A stretch of 43,984 nucleotides of DNA. Origin: Escherichia phage UAB_Phi78. A program made the translations under genes and the position numbers. The notes under the pieces are model-generated. The model was given only the letters and a program-made list of their open reading frames with translations, was not told the origin of the DNA and ran no database searches. This document shows, one piece after another, positions 3,552 to 38,757 of this stretch. How positions within the stretch are numbered: the first letter of the stretch is position 1; every line of letters starts with the position of its first letter. Location of the stretch: the sequence record GU595417; one strand, given 5' to 3'.

Positions 3552-6176
3552 ATGCAAGACTTACACGCTATCCAGCTTCAATTAGAAGAAGAGATGTTTA
3601 ATGGTGGCATTCGTCGGTTCGAAGCAGACCAACAACGCCAGATTGCAGCAGGTAGCGAGAGTGACACGGCATGGAACCGCCGCCTGTTGTCCGAACTTAT
3701 TGCACCTATGGCTGAAGGTATTCAGGCTTATAAAGAGGAGTACGAAGGCAAGAAAGGTCGTGCTCCTCGCGCATTGGCATTCTTACAGTGTGTAGAAAAT
3801 GAAGTTGCAGCATACATCACTATGAAGGTAGTTATGGATATGCTGAATACTGATGTTACTCTTCAGGCTATTGCAATGAGCGTAGCGGAGCGCATCGAAG
3901 ACCAAGTGCGTTTTAGCAAGTTAGAAGGTCACGCCGCTAAATACTTTGAGAAGGTTAAGAAATCACTCAAGGCTAGCCGTACTAAGTCCTATCGTCACGC
4001 GCACAACGTAGCTGTAGTGGCTGAAAAGTCAGTAGCAGAAAAAGACGCTGACTTTGACCGTTGGGAGGCATGGCCCAAAGAGGCTCAATTGCAAATTGGT
4101 ACTACCTTGCTTGAAATCTTAGAGGGCAGCGTATTCTATAACGGTGAACCTGTATTTATGCGTGCTATGCGCACTTATGGCGGCAAGACTATTTACTACT
4201 TACAGACTTCTGAAAGTGTAGGTCAGTGGATTAGCGCGTTCAAAGAGCACGTAGCGCAATTAAGCCCAGCTTATGCTCCTTGCGTAGTCCCTCCTCGTCC
4301 TTGGAAAACCCCATTCAACGGTGGATTCCATACTGAGAAGGTAGCTAGTCGTATTCGCCTTGTAAAAGGCAACCGCGAACATGTGCGCAAGTTAACTCAA
4401 AAGCAGATGCCAAAGGTTTATAAGGCTATCAATGCCCTACAGAATACGCAATGGCAAATCAACAAGGACGTATTAGCAGTTATTGAGGAAGTGATTCGCT
4501 TAGACCTCGGTTATGGTGTGCCGTCCTTCAAGCCCCTGATTGACAAGGAGAACAAGCCAGCTAACCCTGTGCCTGTTGAATTCCAGCACCTGCGCGGTCG
4601 TGAACTGAAAGAAATGCTCTCCCCTGAGCAGTGGCAACAATTTATCAACTGGAAAGGTGAGTGTGCCCGCCTGTATACCGCAGAAACTAAGCGCGGTTCA
4701 AAGTCCGCCGCCGTTGTTCGCATGGTAGGGCAGGCCCGTAAATATAGCACCTTTGAATCCATTTACTTCGTGTACGCAATGGACAGCCGTTCCCGTGTAT
4801 ACGCGCAGTCTAGCACGCTCTCTCCGCAGTCTAACGACTTAGGCAAGGCATTACTCCGCTTTACCGAAGGACGCCCTGTAGACAGCGTAGAGGCGCTTAA
4901 ATGGTTCTGCGTGAATGGCGCTAACCTTTGGGGGTGGGACAAGAAAATTTTTGATGTACGCGTGTCTAACGTGTTGGACGAAGAGTTCCAGGATATGTGC
5001 CGCGACATCGCCGCAGACCCTCTCACGTTCACTCAATGGGCCAAAGCGGACGCGCCTTATGAATTCCTCGCATGGTGCTTTGAGTACGCTCAATACCTTG
5101 ACTTAGTAGAGGAAGGAAGGGCCGACGAGTTCCGCACACACCTGCCAGTACATCAGGACGGTTCCTGCTCCGGTATTCAGCACTATAGCGCTATGCTTCG
5201 CGATGAAGTAGGGGCCAAGGCTGTTAACCTGAAACCGTCCGATACGCCGCAGGATATTTACGGGGCGGTAGCGCAGGTTGTTATCAAGAAGAATGCGCTA
5301 TACATGGATGCAGACGATGCAACTACGTTTACTTCTGGTAGCGTAACACTGTCCGGTGCAGAACTGCGAGCAATGGCTAGCGCATGGGATAGCATTGGTA
5401 TTACCCGCAGCTTAACCAAAAAGCCAGTGATGACCTTGCCTTATGGTTCTACTCGCTTAACTTGCCGTGAATCTGTGATTGACTACATCGTAGACTTAGA
5501 GGAGAAAGAGGCGCAGAAGGCAGTAGCAGAAGGGCGGACGGCAAACAAGGTTCATCCGTTTGAAGACGACCGTCAAGACTACCTGACTCCGGGCGCAGCA
5601 TATAACTACATGACGGCATTAATCTGGCCTTCTATTTCTGAGGTAGTTAAGGCACCAATTGTAGCGATGAAGATGATACGCCAGCTTGCACGCTTTGCAG
5701 CGAAACGCAATGAAGGGCTGATGTACACCCTGCCTACTGGCTTCATCTTAGAACAGAAGATTATGGCAACCGAGATGTTACGTGTGCGTACCTGCCTGAT
5801 GGGTGATATCAAGATGTCGCTTCAGGTTGAAACGGATATAGTAGATGAAGCTGCTATGATGGGCGCAGCAGCACCTAACTTCGTACACGGTCATGATGCA
5901 AGTCACCTTATCCTTACCGTATGTGAATTGGTAGACAAAGGGGTAACTAGTATCGCGGTAATCCACGACTCTTTCGGCACTCATGCCGACAACACTCTCA
6001 CTCTTAGAGTGGCACTTAAAGGGCAGATGGTTGCAATGTATAGTGAAGGCCATGCACTTCAGAAATTACTGGACGAGCACGAAGATCGTTGGATGGTTGA
6101 TACTGGCATCGAAGTGCCTGAGCAAGGGGAGTTTGACCTTAACGAAATCATGGAATCTGAATACGTGTTTGCCTAA
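3552..6176 (+). CDS. single-subunit DNA-directed RNA polymerase (T7/SP6 type)
   Basis: 874 aa; T7-RNAP-like motifs [19 protein letters not shown] and HDSFGTH and a C-terminal ...YVFA end; 874 aa matches the known length of SP6 RNAP. Confidence 0.97.
4964..4979 (+). repeat. 16-bp near-palindromic element embedded in the RNAP coding sequence
   Basis: gtctaacgtgttggac, translated in frame as SNVLD. Confidence 0.7.
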
Positions 6177-9020: not shown

Positions 9021-9121
9021 ATGGATGAACTAGGCTTTTGGTTGTTCATGGTTGTATGTATCGTTATGATTAACCTAGACAAACTTGCCATGCTAATTAA
9101 GTAGTGTCCTTATCAGGGCTT

Positions 9122-9137
9122 GTCCAACATGTTGGAC
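9122..9137. repeat. 16-bp element, perfect-palindrome variant
   Basis: gtccaacatgttggac is its own reverse complement. Confidence 0.7.
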
Positions 9138-9176
9138 AGGCTCTTATTAAGCACATTAACTAACTGGAGATTAACT

Positions 9177-9869
9177 ATGAAGCTTAACTTAAAAGTAGGT
9201 GAACGTGTACGTAATATTCGTGTTGGATCTGCACGCGCAGGGTGGCAAGGTGCCGTCATCGTTGTAACAGAGGAGGAGTACGAAGTTCGATGGGATTGCG
9301 GAGAGAAGCAGGCTTATCTTCGTCGCTTCTCACACAAGAACCTTGAGCGCACACATGTAGCAAGCAAATGCACCTGTGTACACGATGAACTGTGTGACCG
9401 CTGTGCTCGTCAAGTCAGTAAGGCACTGACATTCATGGAGCGGTATGGTGCAGGTCACAAGACACTTGCGGAAGCAGCGTGGAATGTGCTCACGATCGAA
9501 CGCTCTAATGGTCGCAAGGTACTGAAGCGTGAGCGTCGTAATGTGATCACAGGCCAGACACAAGCAGAAATGCAAGCACAGTACGGGCCAGCAAAGGGCG
9601 GTATCATATTCAACACCCGTACATTAGGGCGCAGTACAGGTCAAGCCTTTCGCATCTTAGGCGAGGCCATGTGTAATCCTGGTATTGCTATACGTTATGA
9701 AGATGTAGACCATGCAATATCTGAAGGTACGAGTAATAGAGTTGTATTGAACAGACACTTTGAACAGGTGTTACGTGACACTATAGGTGAGCGCAAGGGC
9801 TTTACCTTTGAGCGCGGCCATGTTACATTTAACCCTATCGTTACGGAGGAAACCTATGTCACGCAATGA
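9177..9869 (+). CDS. hypothetical protein (230 aa)
   Basis: ATG 9177 with GGAG RBS; the track ORF starts upstream at 9120 inside the palindromic element, which is unlikely to be the true start. Confidence 0.6.
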   Translation: MKLNLKVGERVRNIRVGSARAGWQGAVIVVTEEEYEVRWDCGEKQAYLRRFSHKNLERTHVASKCTCVHDELCDRCARQVSKALTFMERYGAGHKTLAEAAWNVLTIERSNGRKVLKRERRNVITGQTQAEMQAQYGPAKGGIIFNTRTLGRSTGQAFRILGEAMCNPGIAIRYEDVDHAISEGTSNRVVLNRHFEQVLRDTIGERKGFTFERGHVTFNPIVTEETYVTQ

Positions 9870-22832: not shown

Positions 22833-22853
22833 ATTTAGGTGACACTATAGAAG
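22833..22853 (+). promoter_or_regulatory. SP6-type phage promoter (consensus)
   Basis: Exact atttaggtgacactatagaag. Confidence 0.9.
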
Positions 22854-22901
22854 GGAGGTACGCCTCCCTAACATATCAACTTGATTTATAAGGAGATTCT
22901 G

Positions 22902-24578: not shown

Positions 24579-24587
24579 TAACCTATG

Positions 24588-24623
24588 CCCTATCTACCTT
24601 GCGTAGGTAGGGTTCTTTTGTTT
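24588..24623 (+). terminator. intrinsic terminator after the major capsid gene
   Basis: 10-bp stem (ccctatctac / gtaggtaggg), 5-nt loop, then ttcttttgttt. Confidence 0.8.
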
Positions 24624-25374: not shown

Positions 25375-27785
25375 TGGAAGTTCAAGGTTCTTTAGGTCGC
25401 CAGATTCAAGGCATAAGCCAGCAACCTCCAGCAGTGAGGCTAGATGGACAGTGTTCAGAAATGGTTAACATGGTGCCTGATGTAGTGGAGGGAACTAAGT
25501 CCCGCATGGGTACAACTCATATTGCCAAGCTCTTAGAGTATGGCGAAGATGACATGGCAGTGCATCATTACCGTAGAGGTGGTGAAGGTGAAGAGGAATA
25601 CTTCTTCATAATGAAGAAGGGGCAAGTACCTGAAATCTTTGACAAACAAGGCCGTAAGTGCATGGTTCAATCCCAAGACGCACCCATGATCTACCTTAGT
25701 GAGGTGACTAACCCTAGAGAGGACGTGCAGTTTATGACAATTGCAGATGTCACTTTTATGCTTAATCGCAAGAAGGTGGTTAAAGCAAGACCAGAACGTT
25801 CCCCTAAAGTAGGAAATACTGCCATTGTCTTCATGGCCTATGGTCAATATGGTACTCATTACAAAATCATTATTGACGGTGTGGTGGCCGCAGGCTACAA
25901 GACCGCTGATGGTGCCGAAGCTCACCATATTGAGACTATTAGGACGGAGAGTATAGCGTACAACCTACATCAGTCACTTCAAAGCTGGGATAAAATTGGG
26001 GATTATGAGACGCAATTGGATGGTACATCAATCTACATTACAAGGAAAGACGGCTCTACTGACTTCGATATTACCACGGAAGATGGTGCCAAAGGTAAAG
26101 ATTTGGTAGCAATCAAATATAAGGTGGCATCAACCGACCTGCTGCCTTCACGTGCGCCAGAAGGGTACAAGGTACAAGTCTGGCCTACTGGCAGTAAACC
26201 GGAATCTAGGTATTGGTTGCAAGCGGAAAAGCAGAATGGGAACATTGTCTCTTGGAAGGAGACACTAGCCGCCGATGTGTTGATAGGGTTTGATAAATCA
26301 ACTATGCCTTACATCATAGAGCGTACAGGGTTTGTCAACGGAGTCGCACAGTTTAAGATACGGCAAGGAGACTGGGAAGACCGTAAGGTAGGTGATGACC
26401 TGACTAACCCTATGCCTTCCTTCATTGATGAGGAAGTACCTCAGACATTAGGTGGTATGTTCATGGTGCAGAATCGTCTATGTGTTACTGCTGGCGAGGC
26501 TGTAATTGCAACTCGCACATCCTACTTCTTTGACTTCTTCCGGTACACTGCTGTATCTGCTGTAGCAACTGACCCTTTTGATGTATTCTCAGATGCTAGT
26601 GAGGTTTATCAGCTCAAACATGCAGTTACCTTGGATGGGTCTACTGTCTTGTTTGCAGATAAATCTCAGTTCATCCTTCCTGGTGATAAGCCTCTTGAGA
26701 AGTCAAACGTATTGCTCAAACCTGTAACCACATTTGAAGTTAACAATAATGTCAAACCTGTAGCCACAGGTGAGTCTGTAATGTTTGCTACAAGTGAAGG
26801 TGCTTATTCAGGCATAAGGGAGTTCTACACAGACTCTTATAGTGATACCAAAAAGGCGCAAGCAATAACTAGTCATGCCAATAAGCTGCTGGAAGGTAAT
26901 GTTATCATGATGTCAGCCAGTACTAATGTGAACAGATTGCTTGTCTTGACCGACAAGTACCGAAACATTATCTACTGCTATGACTGGTTGTGGCAAGGAA
27001 CCGAACGGGTACAAGCTGCATGGCATAAATGGGAGTGGCCATTAGGTACATTCATTCGTGGTATGTTCTATTCAGGGGAACACTTGTATCTGCTCATCGA
27101 ACGTGGTAGTACAGGTGTGTACCTTGAACGTATGGATATGGGTGATGCGCTTGTATATAACCTGAATGACCGCATACGTATGGACAGGCAGGCTGAACTT
27201 ATCTTTAGACATGTCAAAGCGGAAGATGTCTGGGTATCTGAGCCGTTGCCTTGGCAACCAACCGATGTGGCCTTGCTTGATTGCGTGCTGATAGACGGCT
27301 GGGATTCTTACATAGGCGGGTCTTTCTTGTTTAGCTATAATTCAAGAGATAACACCTTAACTACAACCTTTGATATGCACGATGATAACCACGTGAAAGC
27401 TAAGGTAGTAGTAGGTCAGTTATATCCTCAAGAGTTTGAACCCACACAGGTAGTCATACGTGATAACCAAGAGAGGGTGTCTTACATAGATGTACCAACA
27501 GTTGGCTTGGTTCACCTTAATCTAGACAAGTACCCTGACTTCAAGGTTGAGGTCAAGAATTTGAAGAGTGGCAAAGTGCGAAATGTATTGGCCTCTAATA
27601 GAATAGGTGGTGCCAGAAATAATATTGTTGGTTATGTAGAGCCGAGAGAAGGTGTATTCAAATTCCCACTAAGGTCTCTTAGCACCGACACAGTTTATCG
27701 TGTGATGGTAGAATCACCTCACACCTTCCAGCTTAGAGATATCGAGTGGGAAGGTTCGTACAACCCTACTAAGAGGAGAGTGTAA
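25374..27785 (+). CDS. tail tubular protein B
   Basis: About 803 aa; ATG overlaps the upstream stop (TAATG); size and position equivalent to T7 gp12. Confidence 0.85.
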   Translation: MEVQGSLGRQIQGISQQPPAVRLDGQCSEMVNMVPDVVEGTKSRMGTTHIAKLLEYGEDDMAVHHYRRGGEGEEEYFFIMKKGQVPEIFDKQGRKCMVQSQDAPMIYLSEVTNPREDVQFMTIADVTFMLNRKKVVKARPERSPKVGNTAIVFMAYGQYGTHYKIIIDGVVAAGYKTADGAEAHHIETIRTESIAYNLHQSLQSWDKIGDYETQLDGTSIYITRKDGSTDFDITTEDGAKGKDLVAIKYKVASTDLLPSRAPEGYKVQVWPTGSKPESRYWLQAEKQNGNIVSWKETLAADVLIGFDKSTMPYIIERTGFVNGVAQFKIRQGDWEDRKVGDDLTNPMPSFIDEEVPQTLGGMFMVQNRLCVTAGEAVIATRTSYFFDFFRYTAVSAVATDPFDVFSDASEVYQLKHAVTLDGSTVLFADKSQFILPGDKPLEKSNVLLKPVTTFEVNNNVKPVATGESVMFATSEGAYSGIREFYTDSYSDTKKAQAITSHANKLLEGNVIMMSASTNVNRLLVLTDKYRNIIYCYDWLWQGTERVQAAWHKWEWPLGTFIRGMFYSGEHLYLLIERGSTGVYLERMDMGDALVYNLNDRIRMDRQAELIFRHVKAEDVWVSEPLPWQPTDVALLDCVLIDGWDSYIGGSFLFSYNSRDNTLTTTFDMHDDNHVKAKVVVGQLYPQEFEPTQVVIRDNQERVSYIDVPTVGLVHLNLDKYPDFKVEVKNLKSGKVRNVLASNRIGGARNNIVGYVEPREGVFKFPLRSLSTDTVYRVMVESPHTFQLRDIEWEGSYNPTKRRV

Positions 27786-28505: not shown

Positions 28506-31442
28506 ATGGCAATTGAACGTCAAGCTGTACAGGGCTTACGCCGAGTGCAGTCTACTGGTGGGCCAAGTGCTGCTAGTTTTGCGACTCGTCAGGTTGGGGT
28601 GCAAGAGACTAGTGCATCTGGTAGCCGCTTTCTTGAAGACCTTGTAAATGCTGCTGGCAGTTTGGCGACTGTCACTACTTCTATCCTGAACCAAAGGGTG
28701 GAAGATGATAAGGTACGACAATACAACCGGGCGTTAACTGGCCTGATGCCAACTGAAGATGCAACGGTTGGTGGCGCTCGCGCACACATGCTTGTCAGCT
28801 TACAAAATGACATCATCGCGCAAACCATGCAACTGTCCGATGATGCACAGCGTTTTGATGGTGATGACAGCCAATGGGAAGATCACGTTATCAACGCACG
28901 CATGGCTGTTCAAGACCGCCTGTGGGATACCTACCCTGAACTGCGTGGAGATAAGGAGTCCATGCGGGTAGTAACTAACGCCTTCATGGAGCAGCAACCT
29001 AAGATCTTTGCAGCAAGAGAGACTGCCAAGTTGAAGCAGGAAGCTGAATCTCGTATCAAGTCTATGGAATCTCGCATTCTGTTGGCTACACGTGATGTTC
29101 CTGGAGAAGCTATGGGTGATGCCTTGAATCAGTTGCAGAAAGAAGCTATGGCTATGCAAATCACCAAGCAGGAGTTTGATGCGCTGGTTTCTCAGTTGGC
29201 ATCTAATCGTGCAGCTATTGGTGATGATTCTATGATTCAAGGAACCAAGGCTCTCAAGGATGAGAATGGAGTGTCACTTTATGACCGAGTAGGTCAGTTG
29301 CAGACAGGTGAGATTCAGGCCAACCGAACATGGGCGGCGCAGAACCAAGTGGCGCTCTTTGAGAAGAAGGATGCTGCAATCAAAGCCTTTGAGGCTGGAC
29401 AGCTTAACCGTGAGCAGCTACTTCAGGTTATGCAGAACCATAATGAAATCTCAGGGGGCACTGCTTGGTCTGATAGCGAGATCAAATCTTTATTTGATAG
29501 GCAAGCTAAGGTTCGTGCTGAGTCTGCCAAACTAGAAGACTTGGTGGCCCGTGGTGAACATGGCTCTCCTTTAGGCTTGCAAGACATCAGCAAGGAAGAC
29601 CGCAAGGCGTATGCTGGTGCATTGGTTGATGCCTACACCAAGTTGGCCAATGACGAGATAACTCGTACCGGAGCTACTGGTGAAGAAGCTGAGGCCATCC
29701 GTGGACGCTATGAGCAGATGCGATACGCCAAGCTGGGGCAGCAGTTGATTGAAGACCCCATCATCAAAGAACGATATGGCTCGCTAATGCAACTATCTTC
29801 TGCCAACCTGAAAGATATGAAGGTTGAACCTGAAGCATTACAGACTATTATGCGAGCACGTGATTCTATCCCGGAAGATGCACGCCGGGCGGTGATGGGT
29901 GACAAGGAGTATGCCTTTGCGGAGAACTATGACTTGGCTACACGCATGGGTTATACGCCGGGGCAGGCCATAGAGTTTGCACAGAATGCATCGCGTGGCG
30001 ATAAGCTTCCCGGTTCTGTTATGAAAGAATTGAATGATGAAGTCGATGGTGTAGTTAGCGATGTGGCTAGTGGTAGCTGGCTTACGCGTGGCGACAACAT
30101 GAGCGACATGGGACGTGATCTTATGTTAGAAGAGGCAAACCAGATTGCCCGCTCTATGAAGGTTGCAGGTCATAACAATGACACCATTAAGCGACATCTT
30201 AAATCTTTCCTACAGAATCAGTACACTCAACTATCTGAAGGTTTCTTCACTCAAGGTGTTCTGGTCAAAGGTGATGTGAGAACGCTAGGTGACACTATAG
30301 GCACCAACCAAGGAGACGTACCTACGGTATTACGTCAGTACCTTGACAACCATAAGCAAGCCTTGCTGGATGCATCTGGCGGTATGGAAGAAGGAGACTT
30401 GTACTTTGATGTAGACTCTAAGCGCGGTATGTTTACAATACGTGCTGGTTCTGGTCGTGTACCAGTTACTCCAGCTATGCCTTTGTCTGAAATCAAAGGA
30501 CAGGACTTACTGAAGGAGCACTACGAGAAGGCAGTGAAAGAGCGCGATGAGGCTAAGAAGAACTTTGAAGCTAATCAGATGCGTATGTGGGGTGCTGGCG
30601 GGTATCAAGCTCCTGCACCAGAAAAGACTACAGCTAAGACTGTAGGTTCCCGTGGTATCGCTGACTTCCTCATGTCACCAGCCTTTGCATCAGGTGAGAA
30701 TCTACCTTCCAACTTTGAATTCAACTACAAGAGGAATAACATGGACTTCTACAATTATGTAGCTAAGACCGAGAACGGGGCCAACGTAGGGTTCGACCGA
30801 GTAGCTGGTGTATACACTCCGTACAAAGATGCACACGGTCAATCTGTGGGCTACGGTCACTTCCTCACGGAGGAGGAGAAGAAGAATGGATACATCACTA
30901 TTGGCGAAGATAAAGTACCATTTGCACCGGGACAATCTCAGTTAACACCTGAGCGTGCAATGCGCCTGCTTGAGCAGGACATGAAGAGTCACGTACCTAG
31001 CACAAAGGATTGGGCTGTACCTTTTGATGCAATGCATCCGGGAGTGCAACGTGGCCTCATGGACTTGTCTTATAACTTAGGCAAGGCTGGCATCAAGAAT
31101 GCGCCAAAGGCTTATGCAGCATTCAAGGCTGGCAAGTTCACTGATGGGTTTATCGAGATGCTGTCTACTGCATCTACTGAAGGTAAGCGCAGTTCAGGTC
31201 TGCTAGTTCGCAGGGCAGAAGCCTATAACCTTGCACAAAGCGGAGGTGCTGTTCCTAAGATTAGCGAAGTGGAGACGAGGGAAGATGGCTCCATGTACGT
31301 TAGGTTCTCAGGTAACATGTCAGAAGCATTTGTGAGCAAGTCTATCCTTGGCAAGATAGGCAAAGATGGGTGGATGGAAGTCTACCAGCCTAAAGCAGGA
31401 GCACTTGCAAGCGGCACCAAAGTGGGTCGCATTAAACTGTAG
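28506..31442 (+). CDS. internal virion protein with C-terminal lysozyme-like domain
   Basis: 978 aa; YKDAHGQSVGYGHFLT matches the T4-lysozyme-family pattern YKD..G....G.GH.LT. Confidence 0.8.
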   Translation: MAIERQAVQGLRRVQSTGGPSAASFATRQVGVQETSASGSRFLEDLVNAAGSLATVTTSILNQRVEDDKVRQYNRALTGLMPTEDATVGGARAHMLVSLQNDIIAQTMQLSDDAQRFDGDDSQWEDHVINARMAVQDRLWDTYPELRGDKESMRVVTNAFMEQQPKIFAARETAKLKQEAESRIKSMESRILLATRDVPGEAMGDALNQLQKEAMAMQITKQEFDALVSQLASNRAAIGDDSMIQGTKALKDENGVSLYDRVGQLQTGEIQANRTWAAQNQVALFEKKDAAIKAFEAGQLNREQLLQVMQNHNEISGGTAWSDSEIKSLFDRQAKVRAESAKLEDLVARGEHGSPLGLQDISKEDRKAYAGALVDAYTKLANDEITRTGATGEEAEAIRGRYEQMRYAKLGQQLIEDPIIKERYGSLMQLSSANLKDMKVEPEALQTIMRARDSIPEDARRAVMGDKEYAFAENYDLATRMGYTPGQAIEFAQNASRGDKLPGSVMKELNDEVDGVVSDVASGSWLTRGDNMSDMGRDLMLEEANQIARSMKVAGHNNDTIKRHLKSFLQNQYTQLSEGFFTQGVLVKGDVRTLGDTIGTNQGDVPTVLRQYLDNHKQALLDASGGMEEGDLYFDVDSKRGMFTIRAGSGRVPVTPAMPLSEIKGQDLLKEHYEKAVKERDEAKKNFEANQMRMWGAGGYQAPAPEKTTAKTVGSRGIADFLMSPAFASGENLPSNFEFNYKRNNMDFYNYVAKTENGANVGFDRVAGVYTPYKDAHGQSVGYGHFLTEEEKKNGYITIGEDKVPFAPGQSQLTPERAMRLLEQDMKSHVPSTKDWAVPFDAMHPGVQRGLMDLSYNLGKAGIKNAPKAYAAFKAGKFTDGFIEMLSTASTEGKRSSGLLVRRAEAYNLAQSGGAVPKISEVETREDGSMYVRFSGNMSEAFVSKSILGKIGKDGWMEVYQPKAGALASGTKVGRIKL
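30282..30303 (+). promoter_or_regulatory. internal SP6-type promoter-like sequence inside the internal virion protein gene
   Basis: acgctaggtgacactataggc matches the consensus core TAGGTGACACTATAG exactly, with a divergent upstream end. Confidence 0.5.
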
Positions 31443-31458
31443 TGTCATACTCAAGGTT

Positions 31459-31474
31459 GTCTAACACGTTGGAC
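31459..31474 (+). repeat. 16-bp near-palindromic element
   Basis: gtctaacacgttggac in the 66-bp gap between the two large internal virion protein genes. Confidence 0.7.
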
Positions 31475-31508
31475 AGCCTTTATGAATGACATTAACTAAG
31501 GAGGTAAC

Positions 31509-34500
31509 ATGGCTGACGATATTAGCCAAAGCTGGGTGACGGTATCTCAACGCAGGTTGCCGCCTACCTTTGCACAAGTGGCAGAAGCCGAGCGTAAGCT
31601 TGAAGAACAAAGAGCTAACGATAAGGTCATGCAGACTGCACTGGAAAGCGAATGGGCGCTATACGGTGGTCAGCGTGCTATTGAACGGCATACAACGGAG
31701 TTTGCCGAACAAGAAGGCTACACAGTTCCTGAGTCAACAAAAGATGAACTGTCAAAGATTCATGGTTTTGAAATTGCACAGGATATTGTGAAGGATGTTA
31801 AGTCACCAGAAGAATTGCAGTTCCGTATGTCCAATGCGATGGCAGACAAGGAGCGGTCGGAGATACTTGCACGTAATGGATTTACAGGGTTTAGCGCACA
31901 GTTAGCTGCTGGTATTCTTGACCCAGTTGGTTGGGCTGCTTCTATGGTTGCCGCCCCTGTAGCTGGTGCAGTCAAGGTCGCCCGTGTCGGTCGTATCATA
32001 AAGACGGCAGCAGTGGCTGGTGCCGAGAACGCAGCATTGGAAGCCATCCTAGCCAGTGGTGATTACCAGAAGGGCGCAGATGATGTGCTGGCTGCTGCTG
32101 GCTTTGGTATGATAATGGGTGGCACTATCGGGGCAGCCACACGTGAACGCATCGCCAGAAAGCCGGGAGTACAAGGCGTGAATGATGGTGCTGAAGCAGT
32201 GGTAGATGACTTGGATACTGTCGTGAAAGGTGCTGATGAGTTTGATGCATCTGCGGCCAAGGCTGTGCGTGAGGCTATGGAGTATGACGCTTACATGGCT
32301 GTGCGTTCCTATGAACCGCTGAAGGCTAAGGAAGTGGATATGGATGTCGCAATCCTCTCCCACTTAGATGACCTGAAGGCGAACTCTAGCGTGCGTATGA
32401 GTGCCTCCGAGAAGGGTAAACTGAAGGAGCAGATACGTCAGCTTGAAGCAGAAGCCGCCACTATGAAAGGTAAGAAGGTAGATGCCGTGGCAGAAGCTGC
32501 TGCTGCTAAGGGTGCGCCTAAGTCTGCTGCTGACAGGCTGGACTTGGATGTTAAGAAGAAGGCACTGGCACGTCGCTTTGATGAGCCGCTTGCCGACATC
32601 CAAACAAGACTCGACGAGCTTAATGCTAAACTGGCCCGCGTGGAGAACGTAGGTAAGTCCAAGGAGGAGCTGAAGAGATTCTCTAGCTTAACTAGAGAGC
32701 AGCAAATCAAGGAGCTAGGGTTAGATGCTCCGGCTCGTAAAGTGGAGATGACAAGTGCGGTACGGGAAGCTCTTGCGGCTATACGTGCTGAGAAGAAGAA
32801 GACACCAACGCAGGCCCATGCCGAAGCTAAAGCACAGGCTGAAGAGGAAGTACGGCAGAAGCGAGATGATTCTATCGGCGCTAAACGTGTAGAGGATTCG
32901 GAAATTGCAGGCGAGCAGTTTGACCTGTCTGATAGCATGGAAGACCTTATGGACGACCTTGCACGCGAAGCCTATCAGTCTGAAGTTAGACCTGTGAATC
33001 TCAAGGGTCTTGGTTCTGTGTCTTCCGTGATTCTGAACTCAAAGAACCCTGTGTTTCGTGGCCTTGGCTTGCGACTGCTGGAAAACGCACAAGGTGGTGC
33101 CTACCAAGGCAAGACTGCCTCTATCTTATCTAACGTATATGGTAACTTGATTCGCTTTGCGGAGAAGAACCGATACAATGATGGCTTCTCTCAGTTCATC
33201 AAGGATAACAACCTACGTGCTGTTGATTACCTGAACCCTGCTGTTACGAGAGACTTTAATAACCAGATTTACACTGCTATTGTCAAAGGTATACCTGATG
33301 ATACACCACGTGGTGTTAAGCTTGCTGCTGAAGGTATCGCAGATAAACTGGCTAAGTCCCTTGAAATTAGAAAGGCTGCTGGTGAGAAAGGCTTCGAAGA
33401 TGTCAAGTCAGCACGTGACTACATCCCTGTAATCTATGATGGTATCAAGGTAACTGAAGCAGTCAATAGGCTGGGTAGCAGCGAGGCGGTTATTGCCCTG
33501 TTGTCCAAAGGTTATCAGACTGGTAAGTATAAGATGGGCAAGAAGGCAGCAGATGCACTAGCTAAGGTTCAGTATATCCGCGCCTCCGACTCAACCTTAT
33601 CAAGTCGTGTGGCCTTTGACAGGGTAGTATCGCAGCAACAACAAGCACAGCTTATTGAAGACCTGAAGAAGGCAGGTGTGCCTGATAACATCATCGATAA
33701 CTTCATTGAAGGCACTGAGTTGCAAGAGATGGCGGAGTCCGTATCTAACCGAGCTAAGGCAAGCATGGGTATCAATACTCAGGCTGAATATGGCGGGATG
33801 AAGGTTCAGGACTTGCTCAACACTAACGTAGGTGAGTTGGCGGAGAACTACGGCAAAGAGGCAGCAGGCGGTGCAGCTTTGGCGGCGATGGGCTTCCCTA
33901 CCCGTCAGTCTGTATTGAATGCGATTGACGCAGCAGAACGCGCAGGACGTAATATGGCGGGTGCTGACGCCAAGGCAATCAAACAGCTTAGGGCGGAATC
34001 AGAAATGCTCAGGGACTCCGTGAAGCTCATATACGGCAACACTATCGACGCAGACCCAAATGCTGGTATTGTCCGAGGGACTCGCCGTGTACGTGAAATC
34101 ACTGGCCTGTTGCGTTTGGGTCAGATGGGCTTTGCACAGGTGCCGGAGTTGGCCCGCGCCATTACCAAGATGGGAGTGGGTACAGTGCTGAAGTCGATAC
34201 CTGCCACGAAGTTCTTACGCTCCCGCGCTGGACGTAAGGGTGGAACAGCACAAGGTGAATTACTTGAGCCTGAACTGAGGGAGATGGAAGAACTCATAGG
34301 CTACATCGGAGAAGACAACTGGCTATCAGGTTGGAACGTAAGGCACGATGAGTTCGGCGAGACCGCTGACAACATGGGGCGTCTGTCCGCCATCATCGAT
34401 AATGGGCTAGCTATGGGTAGCCGTATTAACACATGGCTGTCTGGTTTCAAGGCAATACAGGGTGGTTCTGAGAAGATTGTAGCACGCTCTATCAATAAGC

Positions 34501-35321
34501 GACTCAAGCAACATTTGATGGGTGAGCGGGAGCTACCTAAGCGTGACCTTGAAGAAGTCGGTTTGGATGAGGCTACCATGAAGCGACTCAAGCGCCACTT
34601 TGATGAGAACCCGATGTATGCCGACTATAATGGTGAGAAGATTCGAATGATGAATTTTGACGCTATGGAGCCAGACTTACGAGAAACCGTAGGTGTGGCA
34701 GTACGCCGTATGTCAGGTCGTCTTATTCAGCGTAACTTCATTGGCGATGAAGGTATCTGGATGAATAAGTGGTGGGGTAAGGCTCTTACTCAGTTTAAAT
34801 CATTCTCTATTGTGTCTATTGAGAAACAGCTTATTCACGACTTGCGTGGTGATAAGATTCAGGCAGCACAGATTATGGCATGGTCTTCCTTGCTGGGCTT
34901 TGCATCATACGCTACACAGATGCAGATGCAGGCAATTGGACGAGAAGACCGAGACAAGTTCTTACGGGAGAAGTTTGATACACAGAACATCGCTATGGGT
35001 GTATTCAATAAACTTCCACAAGTAGCTGGCTTTGGCCTAGCTGGAGATGCCTTGGCAACATTCGGCCTTATGCCTGACTCCATGATGCAGGCACCGGGTC
35101 GTATGGGCTTCCGCCAGCAAGGATTTGGCGACTTGGTGGCTGGTGCTGGTGTCATAAGTGATGCTGTGAACTTGTCACAGGCTTTAGTGAAGTACGCCAA
35201 TGGGGACGACGATGTTTCCACTAGGCAGTTAGTAGATAAGGTACGACGTCTTGTGCCTTTGGCAAATACGATTGGTGTAGGTCAGATGACCAAGGCCAGC
35301 GTAGACTTATTGGAGGACTGA
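31509..35321 (+). CDS. internal virion protein (large, T7 gp16-class)
   Basis: 1270 aa; TAAGGAGGT RBS; position equivalent to T7 gp16. Confidence 0.8.
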   Translation: MADDISQSWVTVSQRRLPPTFAQVAEAERKLEEQRANDKVMQTALESEWALYGGQRAIERHTTEFAEQEGYTVPESTKDELSKIHGFEIAQDIVKDVKSPEELQFRMSNAMADKERSEILARNGFTGFSAQLAAGILDPVGWAASMVAAPVAGAVKVARVGRIIKTAAVAGAENAALEAILASGDYQKGADDVLAAAGFGMIMGGTIGAATRERIARKPGVQGVNDGAEAVVDDLDTVVKGADEFDASAAKAVREAMEYDAYMAVRSYEPLKAKEVDMDVAILSHLDDLKANSSVRMSASEKGKLKEQIRQLEAEAATMKGKKVDAVAEAAAAKGAPKSAADRLDLDVKKKALARRFDEPLADIQTRLDELNAKLARVENVGKSKEELKRFSSLTREQQIKELGLDAPARKVEMTSAVREALAAIRAEKKKTPTQAHAEAKAQAEEEVRQKRDDSIGAKRVEDSEIAGEQFDLSDSMEDLMDDLAREAYQSEVRPVNLKGLGSVSSVILNSKNPVFRGLGLRLLENAQGGAYQGKTASILSNVYGNLIRFAEKNRYNDGFSQFIKDNNLRAVDYLNPAVTRDFNNQIYTAIVKGIPDDTPRGVKLAAEGIADKLAKSLEIRKAAGEKGFEDVKSARDYIPVIYDGIKVTEAVNRLGSSEAVIALLSKGYQTGKYKMGKKAADALAKVQYIRASDSTLSSRVAFDRVVSQQQQAQLIEDLKKAGVPDNIIDNFIEGTELQEMAESVSNRAKASMGINTQAEYGGMKVQDLLNTNVGELAENYGKEAAGGAALAAMGFPTRQSVLNAIDAAERAGRNMAGADAKAIKQLRAESEMLRDSVKLIYGNTIDADPNAGIVRGTRRVREITGLLRLGQMGFAQVPELARAITKMGVGTVLKSIPATKFLRSRAGRKGGTAQGELLEPELREMEELIGYIGEDNWLSGWNVRHDEFGETADNMGRLSAIIDNGLAMGSRINTWLSGFKAIQGGSEKIVARSINKRLKQHLMGERELPKRDLEEVGLDEATMKRLKRHFDENPMYADYNGEKIRMMNFDAMEPDLRETVGVAVRRMSGRLIQRNFIGDEGIWMNKWWGKALTQFKSFSIVSIEKQLIHDLRGDKIQAAQIMAWSSLLGFASYATQMQMQAIGREDRDKFLREKFDTQNIAMGVFNKLPQVAGFGLAGDALATFGLMPDSMMQAPGRMGFRQQGFGDLVAGAGVISDAVNLSQALVKYANGDDDVSTRQLVDKVRRLVPLANTIGVGQMTKASVDLLED

Positions 35322-36483: not shown

Positions 36484-36769
36484 CAAACACGCCGCTACGG
36501 AAGATGAGGTAGGTAAGCTACATAGTGCTATCACCAATCTTTTCAACAAGAAAGCTGCTGCAATCCTCGCTGCGGTAGAGGAAGACCCTGATGCAGCAAT
36601 TGCGCTGGTGTCAGGTAAGGACATGGGTGCCATGTGTAAGTGGGTGCTAGATAATGGCATTACGGCTACACCTGCTGCACAGCAGGAAGAGTCTGCACTG
36701 TCTAAGCGCCTTGCTAAGATCAAAGCAGCATCTCAAGGTAAAGTAATCCAATTTGCTAAGGAGGCTTAA
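36470..36769 (+). CDS. terminase small subunit (candidate)
   Basis: GTG 36470, 7 nt after AAGGAG; about 100 aa; lies immediately upstream of and coupled to the large terminase, as for T7 gp18. The track ORF begins upstream at 36392. Confidence 0.5.
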   Translation: MASHNKHAATEDEVGKLHSAITNLFNKKAAAILAAVEEDPDAAIALVSGKDMGAMCKWVLDNGITATPAAQQEESALSKRLAKIKAASQGKVIQFAKEA

Positions 36770-38667
36770 TGGCTAGAGCAAGGGAGTCACAAGCTGAAGC
36801 CCTTGCCCGTTGGGAAGCCCTGCATGAGTTACAGCAAACTTTTCCGTACACTGTAGCAGGGTTACTCTCATTTGCTCAGGTTGTAATTAATACTTTAATC
36901 ACTGGCAACCCAGACCTGAACCGGGTACAAGCGGATATTCTGAAATTCCTCTTTGGAGGGAACAAATACCGGATGGTAGAGGCACAGCGTGGTCAGGCTA
37001 AGACAACCATTGCAGCTATCTACGCTGCGTTCCGTATCATCCACGAGCCACATAAACGTATCATGATTGTGTCTCAGACAGCGAAGCGAGCAGAAGAAAT
37101 CGCCGGGTGGGTTATCAAAATATTCCGTGGTCTGGACTTCTTGGAGTTCATGTTGCCTGATATCTACGCAGGTGACAAGGCTAGTATAAAAGGCTTTGAA
37201 ATCCACTACACATTGCGTGGTAGCGACAAGTCTCCATCCGTTGCTTGCTACTCTATTGAAGCAGGTATGCAGGGTGCGCGTGCAGATATCATCTTGGCGG
37301 ATGACGTAGAGTCGTTGCAGAACTCTCGTACTGCCGCAGGTCGTGCTCTCTTAGAAGACCTTACCAAGGAATTTGAATCAATCAACCAGTTCGGTGATAT
37401 CATCTACTTGGGGACACCTCAAAGCGTAAACTCCATATACAACAACCTCCCGGCACGTGGTTATCAGATTCGCATCTGGCCCGGTCGCTATCCTACACTA
37501 GAGCAGGAGGCTTGCTATGGAGACTTCCTAGCGCCGATGATTCGTCAGGATATGATTGATGACCCAAGCCTACGCTCCGGCTACGGCATCGACGGTACAC
37601 AAGGCGCACCGACCTGTCCTGAAATGTACGATGACGAGAAGCTCATTGAGAAGGAAATCTCTCAGGGTACAGCTAAGTTCCAGTTGCAGTTCATGCTGAA
37701 CACACGTTTGATGGATGCCGACCGCTATCCTCTTCGTCTTAATCAGCTTATCTTGATGAGCTTTGGTACTGACGTAGTGCCGGAGATGCCGACTTGGAGT
37801 AACGACTCGGTAAACCTTATCAGCGACGCGCCGCGCTTCGGGAACAAGCCCACAGACTACCTGTATCGGCCTGTGCCGCGTCCGTATGAGTGGCGGCCTA
37901 TTCAGCGTCGGCTGATGTATATCGACCCGGCAGGTGGCGGTAAGAACGGCGACGAGACGGGCGTAGCCATTGTGTTCCTGCTGGGAACCTTTATCTACGT
38001 CTACAAAGTCTTCGGCGTACCGGGCGGATACTCCGAATCGGCCCTCAGTCGCATTGTGAGAGAGGCAAAGCAGGCGGAGGTAAAAGAGGTCTTCATAGAG
38101 AAGAACTTCGGTCATGGTGCGTTTGAGGCGGTAATTAAGCCATACTTCGAACGTGAGTGGCCTGCCGAGTTGAAAGAAGATTACGCCACTGGTCAGAAAG
38201 AGGCCCGCATCATTGAGACGCTGGAGCCGCTTATGTCCGCACACCGCATCATCTTCAATGCCGAGATGATCAAGCAGGATGTCGATAGCGTCCAGCACTA
38301 CCCTCTTGAGATTCGCATGAGCTACAGCCTGTTTGCTCAGATGTCGAACATAACCCTTGAGAAAGGATGCCTGCGGCACGATGACCGCTTAGACGCGCTG
38401 TATGGCGCTATACGGCAATTAACCTCTCAGATAGACTATGACGAGGCTAACCGGATAAATCGTCTCAGGGCGAAGGAGATGCGCGAATATCTGGAGATGA
38501 TGACCGACCCTCTACGTCGCCGGGAGTTCTTCACAGGACAAGACCACGGTTATCGAAAACAAGTGAACACGTCAGTGGCAATGCAGCGCCGAGTCTACGG
38601 AAATGCGCCGACGATGAGAATCAAGTCTCGAAATACTCTTTCTTCAAGAATATCAAGGACTTGGTAA
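36769..38667 (+). CDS. terminase large subunit
   Basis: 632 aa; AAGGAGG RBS; size and position equivalent to T7 gp19. The 269-aa antisense ORF inside it is discounted. Confidence 0.9.
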   Translation: MARARESQAEALARWEALHELQQTFPYTVAGLLSFAQVVINTLITGNPDLNRVQADILKFLFGGNKYRMVEAQRGQAKTTIAAIYAAFRIIHEPHKRIMIVSQTAKRAEEIAGWVIKIFRGLDFLEFMLPDIYAGDKASIKGFEIHYTLRGSDKSPSVACYSIEAGMQGARADIILADDVESLQNSRTAAGRALLEDLTKEFESINQFGDIIYLGTPQSVNSIYNNLPARGYQIRIWPGRYPTLEQEACYGDFLAPMIRQDMIDDPSLRSGYGIDGTQGAPTCPEMYDDEKLIEKEISQGTAKFQLQFMLNTRLMDADRYPLRLNQLILMSFGTDVVPEMPTWSNDSVNLISDAPRFGNKPTDYLYRPVPRPYEWRPIQRRLMYIDPAGGGKNGDETGVAIVFLLGTFIYVYKVFGVPGGYSESALSRIVREAKQAEVKEVFIEKNFGHGAFEAVIKPYFEREWPAELKEDYATGQKEARIIETLEPLMSAHRIIFNAEMIKQDVDSVQHYPLEIRMSYSLFAQMSNITLEKGCLRHDDRLDALYGAIRQLTSQIDYDEANRINRLRAKEMREYLEMMTDPLRRREFFTGQDHGYRKQVNTSVAMQRRVYGNAPTMRIKSRNTLSSRISRTW

Positions 38668-38686
38668 TTAGGGGACACTATAGGAG
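38666..38686 (+). promoter_or_regulatory. SP6-type phage promoter (variant)
   Basis: aattaggggacactataggag, directly after the terminase stop. Confidence 0.75.
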
Positions 38687-38757
38687 GAGGCCCAGAGAAT
38701 AAGAGAAATAACAAGGATAATATAGGTTAACCTAGGTTATATAGGTTACTATAGTAT

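Follow-up and report, generated by a model that had tools for sequence, protein, structure and literature searches.

A candidate secondary late promoter within the gp36 gene of an SP6-like phage

Does a perfect SP6 promoter core lying in the middle of a large virion-protein gene belong to a working promoter, or do the codons of that gene happen to spell it? The locus that raises this question is in the genome of Escherichia phage UAB_Phi78 (sequence record GU595417; 43,984 nucleotides (nt), the whole of which was analysed and is called the window below), which is the complete genome of an SP6-like Salmonella phage, a Zindervirus (IMG/VR UViG 2595698432_000001). Its identity over positions 29000-32000 is 99.8% with Salmonella phage vB_SenAt-pSL2 (species Zindervirus UAB78) and 94% with SP6. 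The gene concerned encodes a 978-residue homologue of SP6 gp36 (28506..31442, + strand), annotated as 'lysozyme domain-containing' or as an internal virion protein, and within codons L594-G599 it contains TAGGTGACACTATAG, a 15/15 match to the core (30286-30300, + strand); the initial annotation had put such a match within 30282-30303, and the exact site is enclosed by that span. We favour the reading, to which the sequence comparisons below give roughly an even chance, that these 15 bases belong to a secondary late promoter, SP6-type and attenuated, which feeds the genes from gp37 through terminase.

The core at homologous codons and in a shifted lineage

In its reading frame the site is AGA ACG CTA GGT GAC ACT ATA GGC (R T L G D T I G). 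With G30300, the predicted start, numbered +1, the promoter-like element extends from -17 to +6 (30283..30305, + strand; CGC TAGGTGACACTATAG GCACC) and has a perfect core and flanks off consensus, CGC occupying -17 to -15; positions -15 to -1 are borne by the five codons CTA GGT GAC ACT ATA (L594-I598; 30285..30299, + strand). The orientation is that of all large genes of the window. The core match is not a chance 15-mer, because the window holds 17 core matches with up to three mismatches (six of them exact) where shuffled sequences lead one to expect 1.46 and no shuffle reached 17; exact 15-mers expected on both strands of 44 kb number about 1e-4 by our arithmetic.

Homologous codons, together with the promoters of the same phage, were gathered from GenBank phages, IMG/VR and metagenome contigs. 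A profile-based search of IMG/VR added one further, non-informative lineage, and scanning metagenomes for a degenerate pattern of the adjoining peptide FFTQGVLVKGD, a criterion independent of the site itself, brought in eight contigs, all from lineages already seen. In SP6 the site lies at 29396-29410 and is again preceded by CGC, as it is in pSL2 and Kenya-K30; BP12B has the site too, and TAGGTGACACTATAG also occupies the homologous codons of PST_H2, contig 001199, CrRp3, R4596, UKE2, contig 002160, L092 and metagenome contigs. The element is old and is common to SP6-like phages, many K1-5-like phages and several Klebsiella phages having this version of the protein. Among phages whose own promoters are of the SP6 type, a perfect core is preceded by CGC in the SP6/UAB78/Kenya lineage, by CTT in PST_H2 and by GTT in contig 001199, and the K1-ULIP33/VR702/000522 group reads CTT followed by TAGGTGACGCTATAG (G at -6, Thr to Ala). 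CrRp3, R4596, UKE2, 002160 and L092, with TACTGGACACTATAG as their own promoters, have CAT and an SP6-type core; LL11, with the same promoters, has CGT and TAGGAGATACTATAG. Contig 000861 (own promoters TGTGTTGCACTATAG) reads CAT and TAGGTAGCACTATAG, and Proteus phage Pm5460 (own promoters TAGAGACCACTATAG) reads GTT and TAGGAGACACTATAG. The K1-5 group (own promoters TACTGGACACTATAG) has a non-homologous segment at this place and no site, and the FBKp16/PA45-9/045697 group, in which no CACTATAG-type promoter cores were seen, reads RGLGEALK and likewise has no site.

Upstream of the core, -17 is C or G in every lineage and, being fixed as a second codon position, prevents the element from ever being fully consensus. 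Position -16 is A/T and -15 is T except in the SP6/UAB78/Kenya lineage (G and C) and in LL11 (G at -16). The emphasis that the initial annotation laid on the upstream end was reasonable but not the full picture: most relatives deviate only at -17, and the CGC version is confined to the SP6/UAB78/Kenya lineage.

The sequence of the site appears to be kept by selection on the DNA itself, besides selection on the protein. Full-length gp36 genes of nine lineages were aligned by codon, and we determined, for each amino acid, how often pairs of lineages sharing the residue also use the same codon, and ranked segments of five codons by their excess of synonymous identity. The L-G-D-T-I codons (30285-30299) show the largest excess in the 978-codon gene, with 107 of 143 same-amino-acid pairs identical against 62.1 expected (rank 1 of 767; the number of segments ranked varies with the coverage cut-off, up to 839). 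Other sets of lineages put it at 1 of 839, at 2 of 837 and, without Zindervirus, at 1 of 836; it is 13 of 861 when only lineages with an intact LGDTI peptide are taken and 10 of 925 with only the four lineages that have SP6-type promoters. As the site had been chosen beforehand, its rank can be read as an empirical P of about 0.001-0.015, a value without correction for phylogeny, though all segments share the same tree. The rare codon ATA, which makes up 4-13% of the Ile codons of gp36 in most lineages examined and 27% in the Proteus phage, is kept at the site in all 13 sequences having Ile there; the four other ATA codons of the window's gp36 gene are not similarly conserved. In the eight metagenome contigs the eleven codons of FFTQGVLVKGD, a peptide equally conserved as protein, vary freely at synonymous positions, whereas TTA GGT GAC/AGC A/GCT ATA is constant. 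Since the flanks of the site show no unusual similarity between lineages, a recently exchanged block is unlikely.

A second line of evidence comes from contig 000861 (IMG/VR 3300045988_000861; L018, L087 and L011 in our collection, and also metagenome locus L136). About ten of its promoters read TGTGTTGCACTATAG, with ATT TGTGTTGCACTATAG as the consensus, and its early promoter is the variant TATGTAGCACTATAA; -9/-8 are shifted from G,A to T/A,G, and the consensus is shifted at -13 and -12 as well. The contig looks like a natural switch of polymerase/promoter specificity at -13, -12, -9 and -8. Its polymerase carries I753V, K754F and E760D, which as a set occur in no other lineage examined, in a region that we take, by homology with T7 and on an assumed residue mapping, to be the specificity loop; M95F, L104F and I107V are also present. 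In this contig alone the internal site reads TAGGTAGCACTATAG, GAC (Asp) being replaced by AGC (Ser), so that exactly -9 and -8 are altered. The replacement requires two base changes. Of the gp36 columns, 487 do not vary among 14 other sequences, and the contig differs in just 11 of these, this one included; we roughly estimate a probability of about 0.001-0.002 that chance would strike that codon and in that direction. With synonymous conservation this exceptional, and with a change in step with one polymerase/promoter shift, the comparative evidence leans to a functional element.

Late-block layout and the proposed promoter

The arrangement of the late genes offers such an element a role. The nearest canonical promoter upstream of the site (22833..22855, + strand; ATT TAGGTGACACTATAG AAGGG) lies ahead of the major capsid gene, and directly 3' of that gene a strong terminator-like hairpin with an 11-bp stem followed by TCTTTTGTTT (24587..24613, + strand) would, from its sequence, limit read-through into the late block. 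Its position after the capsid gene is that of T-phi in T7. The next canonical promoter downstream (38666..38688, + strand; AAT TAGGGGACACTATAG GAGGA) comes after the terminase gene, and between 22836 and 38669, a stretch of 15.8 kb, there are no promoter cores apart from the internal site. Because this stretch is without a canonical promoter, both tail-tube genes, gp35-gp37, the tail-fibre adaptor, the holin and both terminase genes depend on read-through. The first complete gene 3' of the site is the gp37 homologue (31509..35321, + strand; 1270 residues), which has a strong ribosome-binding site, TAAGGAGG, and the terminator scan gave no + strand terminator-like sites between 30300 and 31509. 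The service to later genes that had been proposed for the site fits this layout.

From the sequence and position of the site, its conservation, its tracking of one promoter shift and the gene layout, we infer polymerase binding, initiation, a promoter strength and a downstream benefit, as follows. The 23-base element, which overlaps the T-L-G-D-T-I-G-T codons of this gp36-type internal virion protein, would be recognized by the phage's own single-subunit RNA polymerase, which would bind the core via its specificity loop, melt the TATA segment and initiate at G30300. The transcript would cross the last third of the gp36 gene and continue into gp37, the tail-fibre adaptor, holin and terminase, so that initiation at 30300 would provide fresh transcript, first of all for gp37, to the distal half of the late block, a 14-kb stretch located behind the capsid terminator and lacking a canonical promoter.

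The predicted promoter should be weaker in the window phage and in SP6 than in relatives reading CAT, CTT or GTT at -17 to -15, because in the former -16 and -15 are also G/C pairs and +3 to +5 are not purine-rich. In a saturation study of T7 polymerase (PMC7948468), -17 was not critical, -16 to -14 favoured A/T pairs, -6 favoured a purine and -9 to -7 could not be substituted. By analogy with T7 the CAT, CTT and GTT versions and the version with G at -6 of the K1-ULIP33 group would be usable, and two positions would weaken CGC. The comparison with T7 has its limits, as the SP6 and K1E polymerases do not obey all T7 recognition rules (PMC11880802). A wider proposal is that the segment codes for both promoter and protein, is preserved across several Molineuxvirinae genera and co-evolves with polymerase specificity (forcing Asp to Ser in contig 000861), with its strength tuned in each lineage via the synonymous positions -16 and -15. 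If so, it would be a clear example from nature of such dual coding. We advance this tentatively, as plausible on the sequences compared but somewhat short of an even chance.

The initial annotation had allowed for both an active and an inactive site, and for an active one it also expected a boost to the region encoding the lysozyme domain. This domain (Pfam PF00959; residues 770-905 of the gp36 homologue) does lie 3' of the core site, but the expectation is weak: because the transcript begins inside the open reading frame (ORF), the domain could be made from it only via an internal start codon. The one candidate for such a start is an ATG in frame at 30741, which is preceded by AAGAGGAATAAC, with AAGAGG as Shine-Dalgarno sequence, and would give a 233-residue C-terminal product (30741-31442) with the lysozyme domain. 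This ATG is conserved in Zindervirus, contig 000861 and Vectrevirus-like lineages, but contig 001199, the K1-ULIP33 group and the Proteus phage have CAG or GCA instead; as these are lineages that keep the site, the start was rejected as not linked to it. AGGTGA was likewise set aside as a Shine-Dalgarno sequence, there being by eye no start codon at a usable distance after it.

The spacer between gp36 and gp37 (31443-31508; 66 nt) holds an inverted repeat at 31452-31479 (AAGGTTGTC...GGACAGCCTT, about 9 pairs and a 10-nt loop). It has no T run after it, is absent from the terminator scan owing to its loop size, and may serve for processing or as a weak stop signal.

Flanks, placement and rival explanations

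The 12 other promoter-like sites of the window form a coherent family, (A/T)(A/T/G)T TA(G/C/A/T)G(T/G)GACACTATAG, then purine-rich. Relative to this family the upstream end of the internal site is divergent, as had been noted at the outset, with CGC at -17 to -15, where 11 of the other sites have ATT or AAT and the remaining one has TGT. That description was incomplete: at +3 to +5 the internal site reads CAC and the other sites A/T, C/G and a purine, which makes -17, -16, -15, +3, +4 and +5 the non-consensus positions. G at +1 and G at +2 are both found in natural sites (typical starts GAAGA, GAACA and GGAGG).

The site with TGT (9769-9791, core 9772-9786; TGT TACGTGACACTATAG GTGAG), atypical at -17 to -15, is part of the 3'-terminal stretch of ORF 9120..9869, and sites of this type (SP6 9115; L018:9592) are conserved in all lineages. 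In the window this is a single ORF of 249 codons, and the pSL2 record has two genes there (9175-9675 and 9668-9868); the discrepancy could be a frameshift, an annotation difference or a sequencing difference.

Several observations weigh against promoter function of the internal site. Five of its eight flanking positions (-17, -15, +3, +4 and +5) carry letters absent from all 12 other sites, and a position weight matrix built from these sites gives it 5.7 bits against 17.6-35.8 bits (leave-one-out) for the others, which is a soft argument only, since the penalties hinge on pseudocounts. All 12 other sites are intergenic or at most about 100 nt from a gene end, whereas the internal site is mid-gene, 1780 nt from the start of the ORF, 1157 nt from its end and 1209 nt before the next start codon. 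Synonymous changes that would improve -16, -15 and +3 (ACT/ACA, TTA, GGA) are possible and are unused in the SP6/UAB78/Kenya lineage. Among relatives, the core of LL11 is altered by two synonymous changes (TTA GGA GAT ACT ATA), the internal site of Pm5460 does not fit that phage's own consensus, and the region is missing altogether in K1-5 and close relatives, so that the site is dispensable; in a set of K1-5-type and Proteus lineages the excess synonymous conservation of the LGDTI codons is unremarkable (rank 83 of 932). In contig 000861 a site of the 9772 type, probably a counted promoter, has kept GTGACAC where the other promoters have GTTGCAC, and tracking of the shift is therefore not universal. 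Finally, a scan of SP6 gives 13 cores with at most two mismatches, the internal one included, and SP6 promoters are stated to appear 12 times (2025 paper, PMC11880802); this comparison with a single paper suggests that the internal site is not counted by the field. The six GenBank records tabulated (SP6 twice, pSL2, Kenya-K30, LL11 and K1-5) contain no promoter annotation, and literature searches on the sequence itself, Zindervirus promoters, SP6 transcriptomes and transcription start site data for SP6-like phages found nothing relevant among the papers searched.

Much of this would be expected if the codons of LGDTIG spell the core by coincidence, the sequence having been inherited from an ancestor and being unused by the polymerase, with both flanks wrong. 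The low matrix score and the position deep inside the gene, the other codons with which LL11 keeps the same peptide, the absence from K1-5-type and FBKp16-type phages of the site or of all the region around it, and the apparent omission from the published count all speak for such a by-product of coding, as does the Proteus phage, which retains a similar sequence despite differing promoters of its own; from an ancestor reading xTAGGnGAyACTATAGG, LL11 would stand only two synonymous positions off a perfect core. It leaves out of account, however, that these five codons show the top synonymous excess of the gene, that a rare ATA is kept in every lineage with Ile there, that synonymous sites in the conserved peptide next to it are free to drift, and that the two-base switch from Asp to Ser (AGC) occurs exactly in the lineage whose promoters gained G at -8. 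On balance we regard this explanation as unlikely, although it retains appreciable weight. The synonymous constraint is real but by itself silent on its cause, and it might reflect mRNA structure, a programmed translational slow-down at rare codons (TTA/CTA and ATA, two of the five) or repeated gene conversion by which the dozen canonical promoter copies keep the internal one identical to them. An RNA structure was rejected, since the 135 nt surrounding the site are no more stably folded than shuffled versions (z = 0.05), and a pause at rare codons does not explain the conservation of GGT, GAC and ACT, which are common. Gene conversion could mimic both the constraint and the co-variation in contig 000861, where the early promoter shares GTAGCACTATA with the internal site, but its tracts should also bring along the ATT and AAG flanks, and these are never found at the internal site in any lineage. 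Taken together, these other constraints on DNA or RNA strike us as improbable.

The core could also bind polymerase for a purpose other than mRNA synthesis, as a secondary replication origin or primer site or as an entry point for genome internalisation. Some T7 promoters have been described as entry points for transcription-driven internalisation of the genome, and an intact core with a poor initiation-proximal flank, roughly midway in the 15.8-kb stretch without a canonical promoter, would suit such a use. No specific sequence support was found for it, an AT-rich origin-like tract beside the site not having been searched for, and K1-5-type phages manage without the site; we consider it very improbable.

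Related promoters and significance

As a secondary late promoter the element would have partial parallels. It shares with the canonical SP6 promoters (ATTTAGGTGACACTATAGAAG) the -14 to +1 core, G at +1 and a + strand orientation like that of all genes, but these have ATT or AAT at -17 to -15 and are intergenic or at gene ends, whereas the internal site has CGC and lies 1780 nt into a gene. In T7 the late promoters phi13 and phi17 lie downstream of T-phi, and T7 promoters also occur within coding sequence, for example in gene 4. The putative activity of the internal site would resemble that of phi13 and phi17 in that an extra promoter re-supplies virion and packaging genes behind the capsid terminator; the T7 promoters belong to another family and precede gene starts, whereas the internal site is mid-gene and has a degraded upstream end. 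A further parallel is an intragenic core in the small-terminase gene of K1-5-like phages (CAA/CTA TACTGGACACTATAG AAGAAG), likewise a perfect core of the phage's own type on the coding strand of a late gene with a non-consensus -17 to -15. It differs in the gene concerned and in its downstream AAGAAG, which is consensus, unlike that of the internal site. This core was seen in K1-5, LL11, CrRp3, R4596, UKE2, contig 002160 and L092 (LL11, L006:36327-36341; K1-5, L007:35491-35505; also L097:21174, L096:21248, L092:13179 and L132/L133:17572), and the homologous place in the window (36540-36600) holds no promoter-like sequence.

Two further intragenic sequences were observed. The K1-ULIP33/000522 lineage has a second intragenic near-core, ATA TGGGTGACGCTATAG, in the gene for tail tubular protein B (L100:7341, L108:6017, L130:6021, L137:4389, L138:4696 and L139:7010), with G at -6 as in its gp36 site; the window homologue (about 27125-27150) is ATATGGGTGATGCGCTTG and is not promoter-like. 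Inside the RNA polymerase gene of the window, at 5174-5188, TAT(T/C)CAGCACTATAG is conserved across lineages (L018:5494, L006:4867, L020:4649); it shares AGCACTATAG with the promoters of contig 000861, but upstream of -8 it bears little resemblance to the SP6 core.

That a T7-like phage should have an internal or secondary promoter would not be surprising in kind, and the points of interest here are the synonymous constraint, the co-variation with polymerase specificity and the allelic series. CGC, CAT, CTT and GTT upstream of an identical core form a natural variant series for the contribution of -17 to -15 to the strength of SP6-type promoters, and a cryptic SP6 promoter core will be present in cloned fragments of the gp36 gene. 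Should the site be inactive, it would be a useful negative control of the same kind, and the synonymous constraint would then need another explanation. If it is active, SP6, the source of a standard laboratory promoter, would have a thirteenth, atypical promoter missed by annotation, and the late transcription map of SP6-like phages would gain a start behind the capsid terminator.

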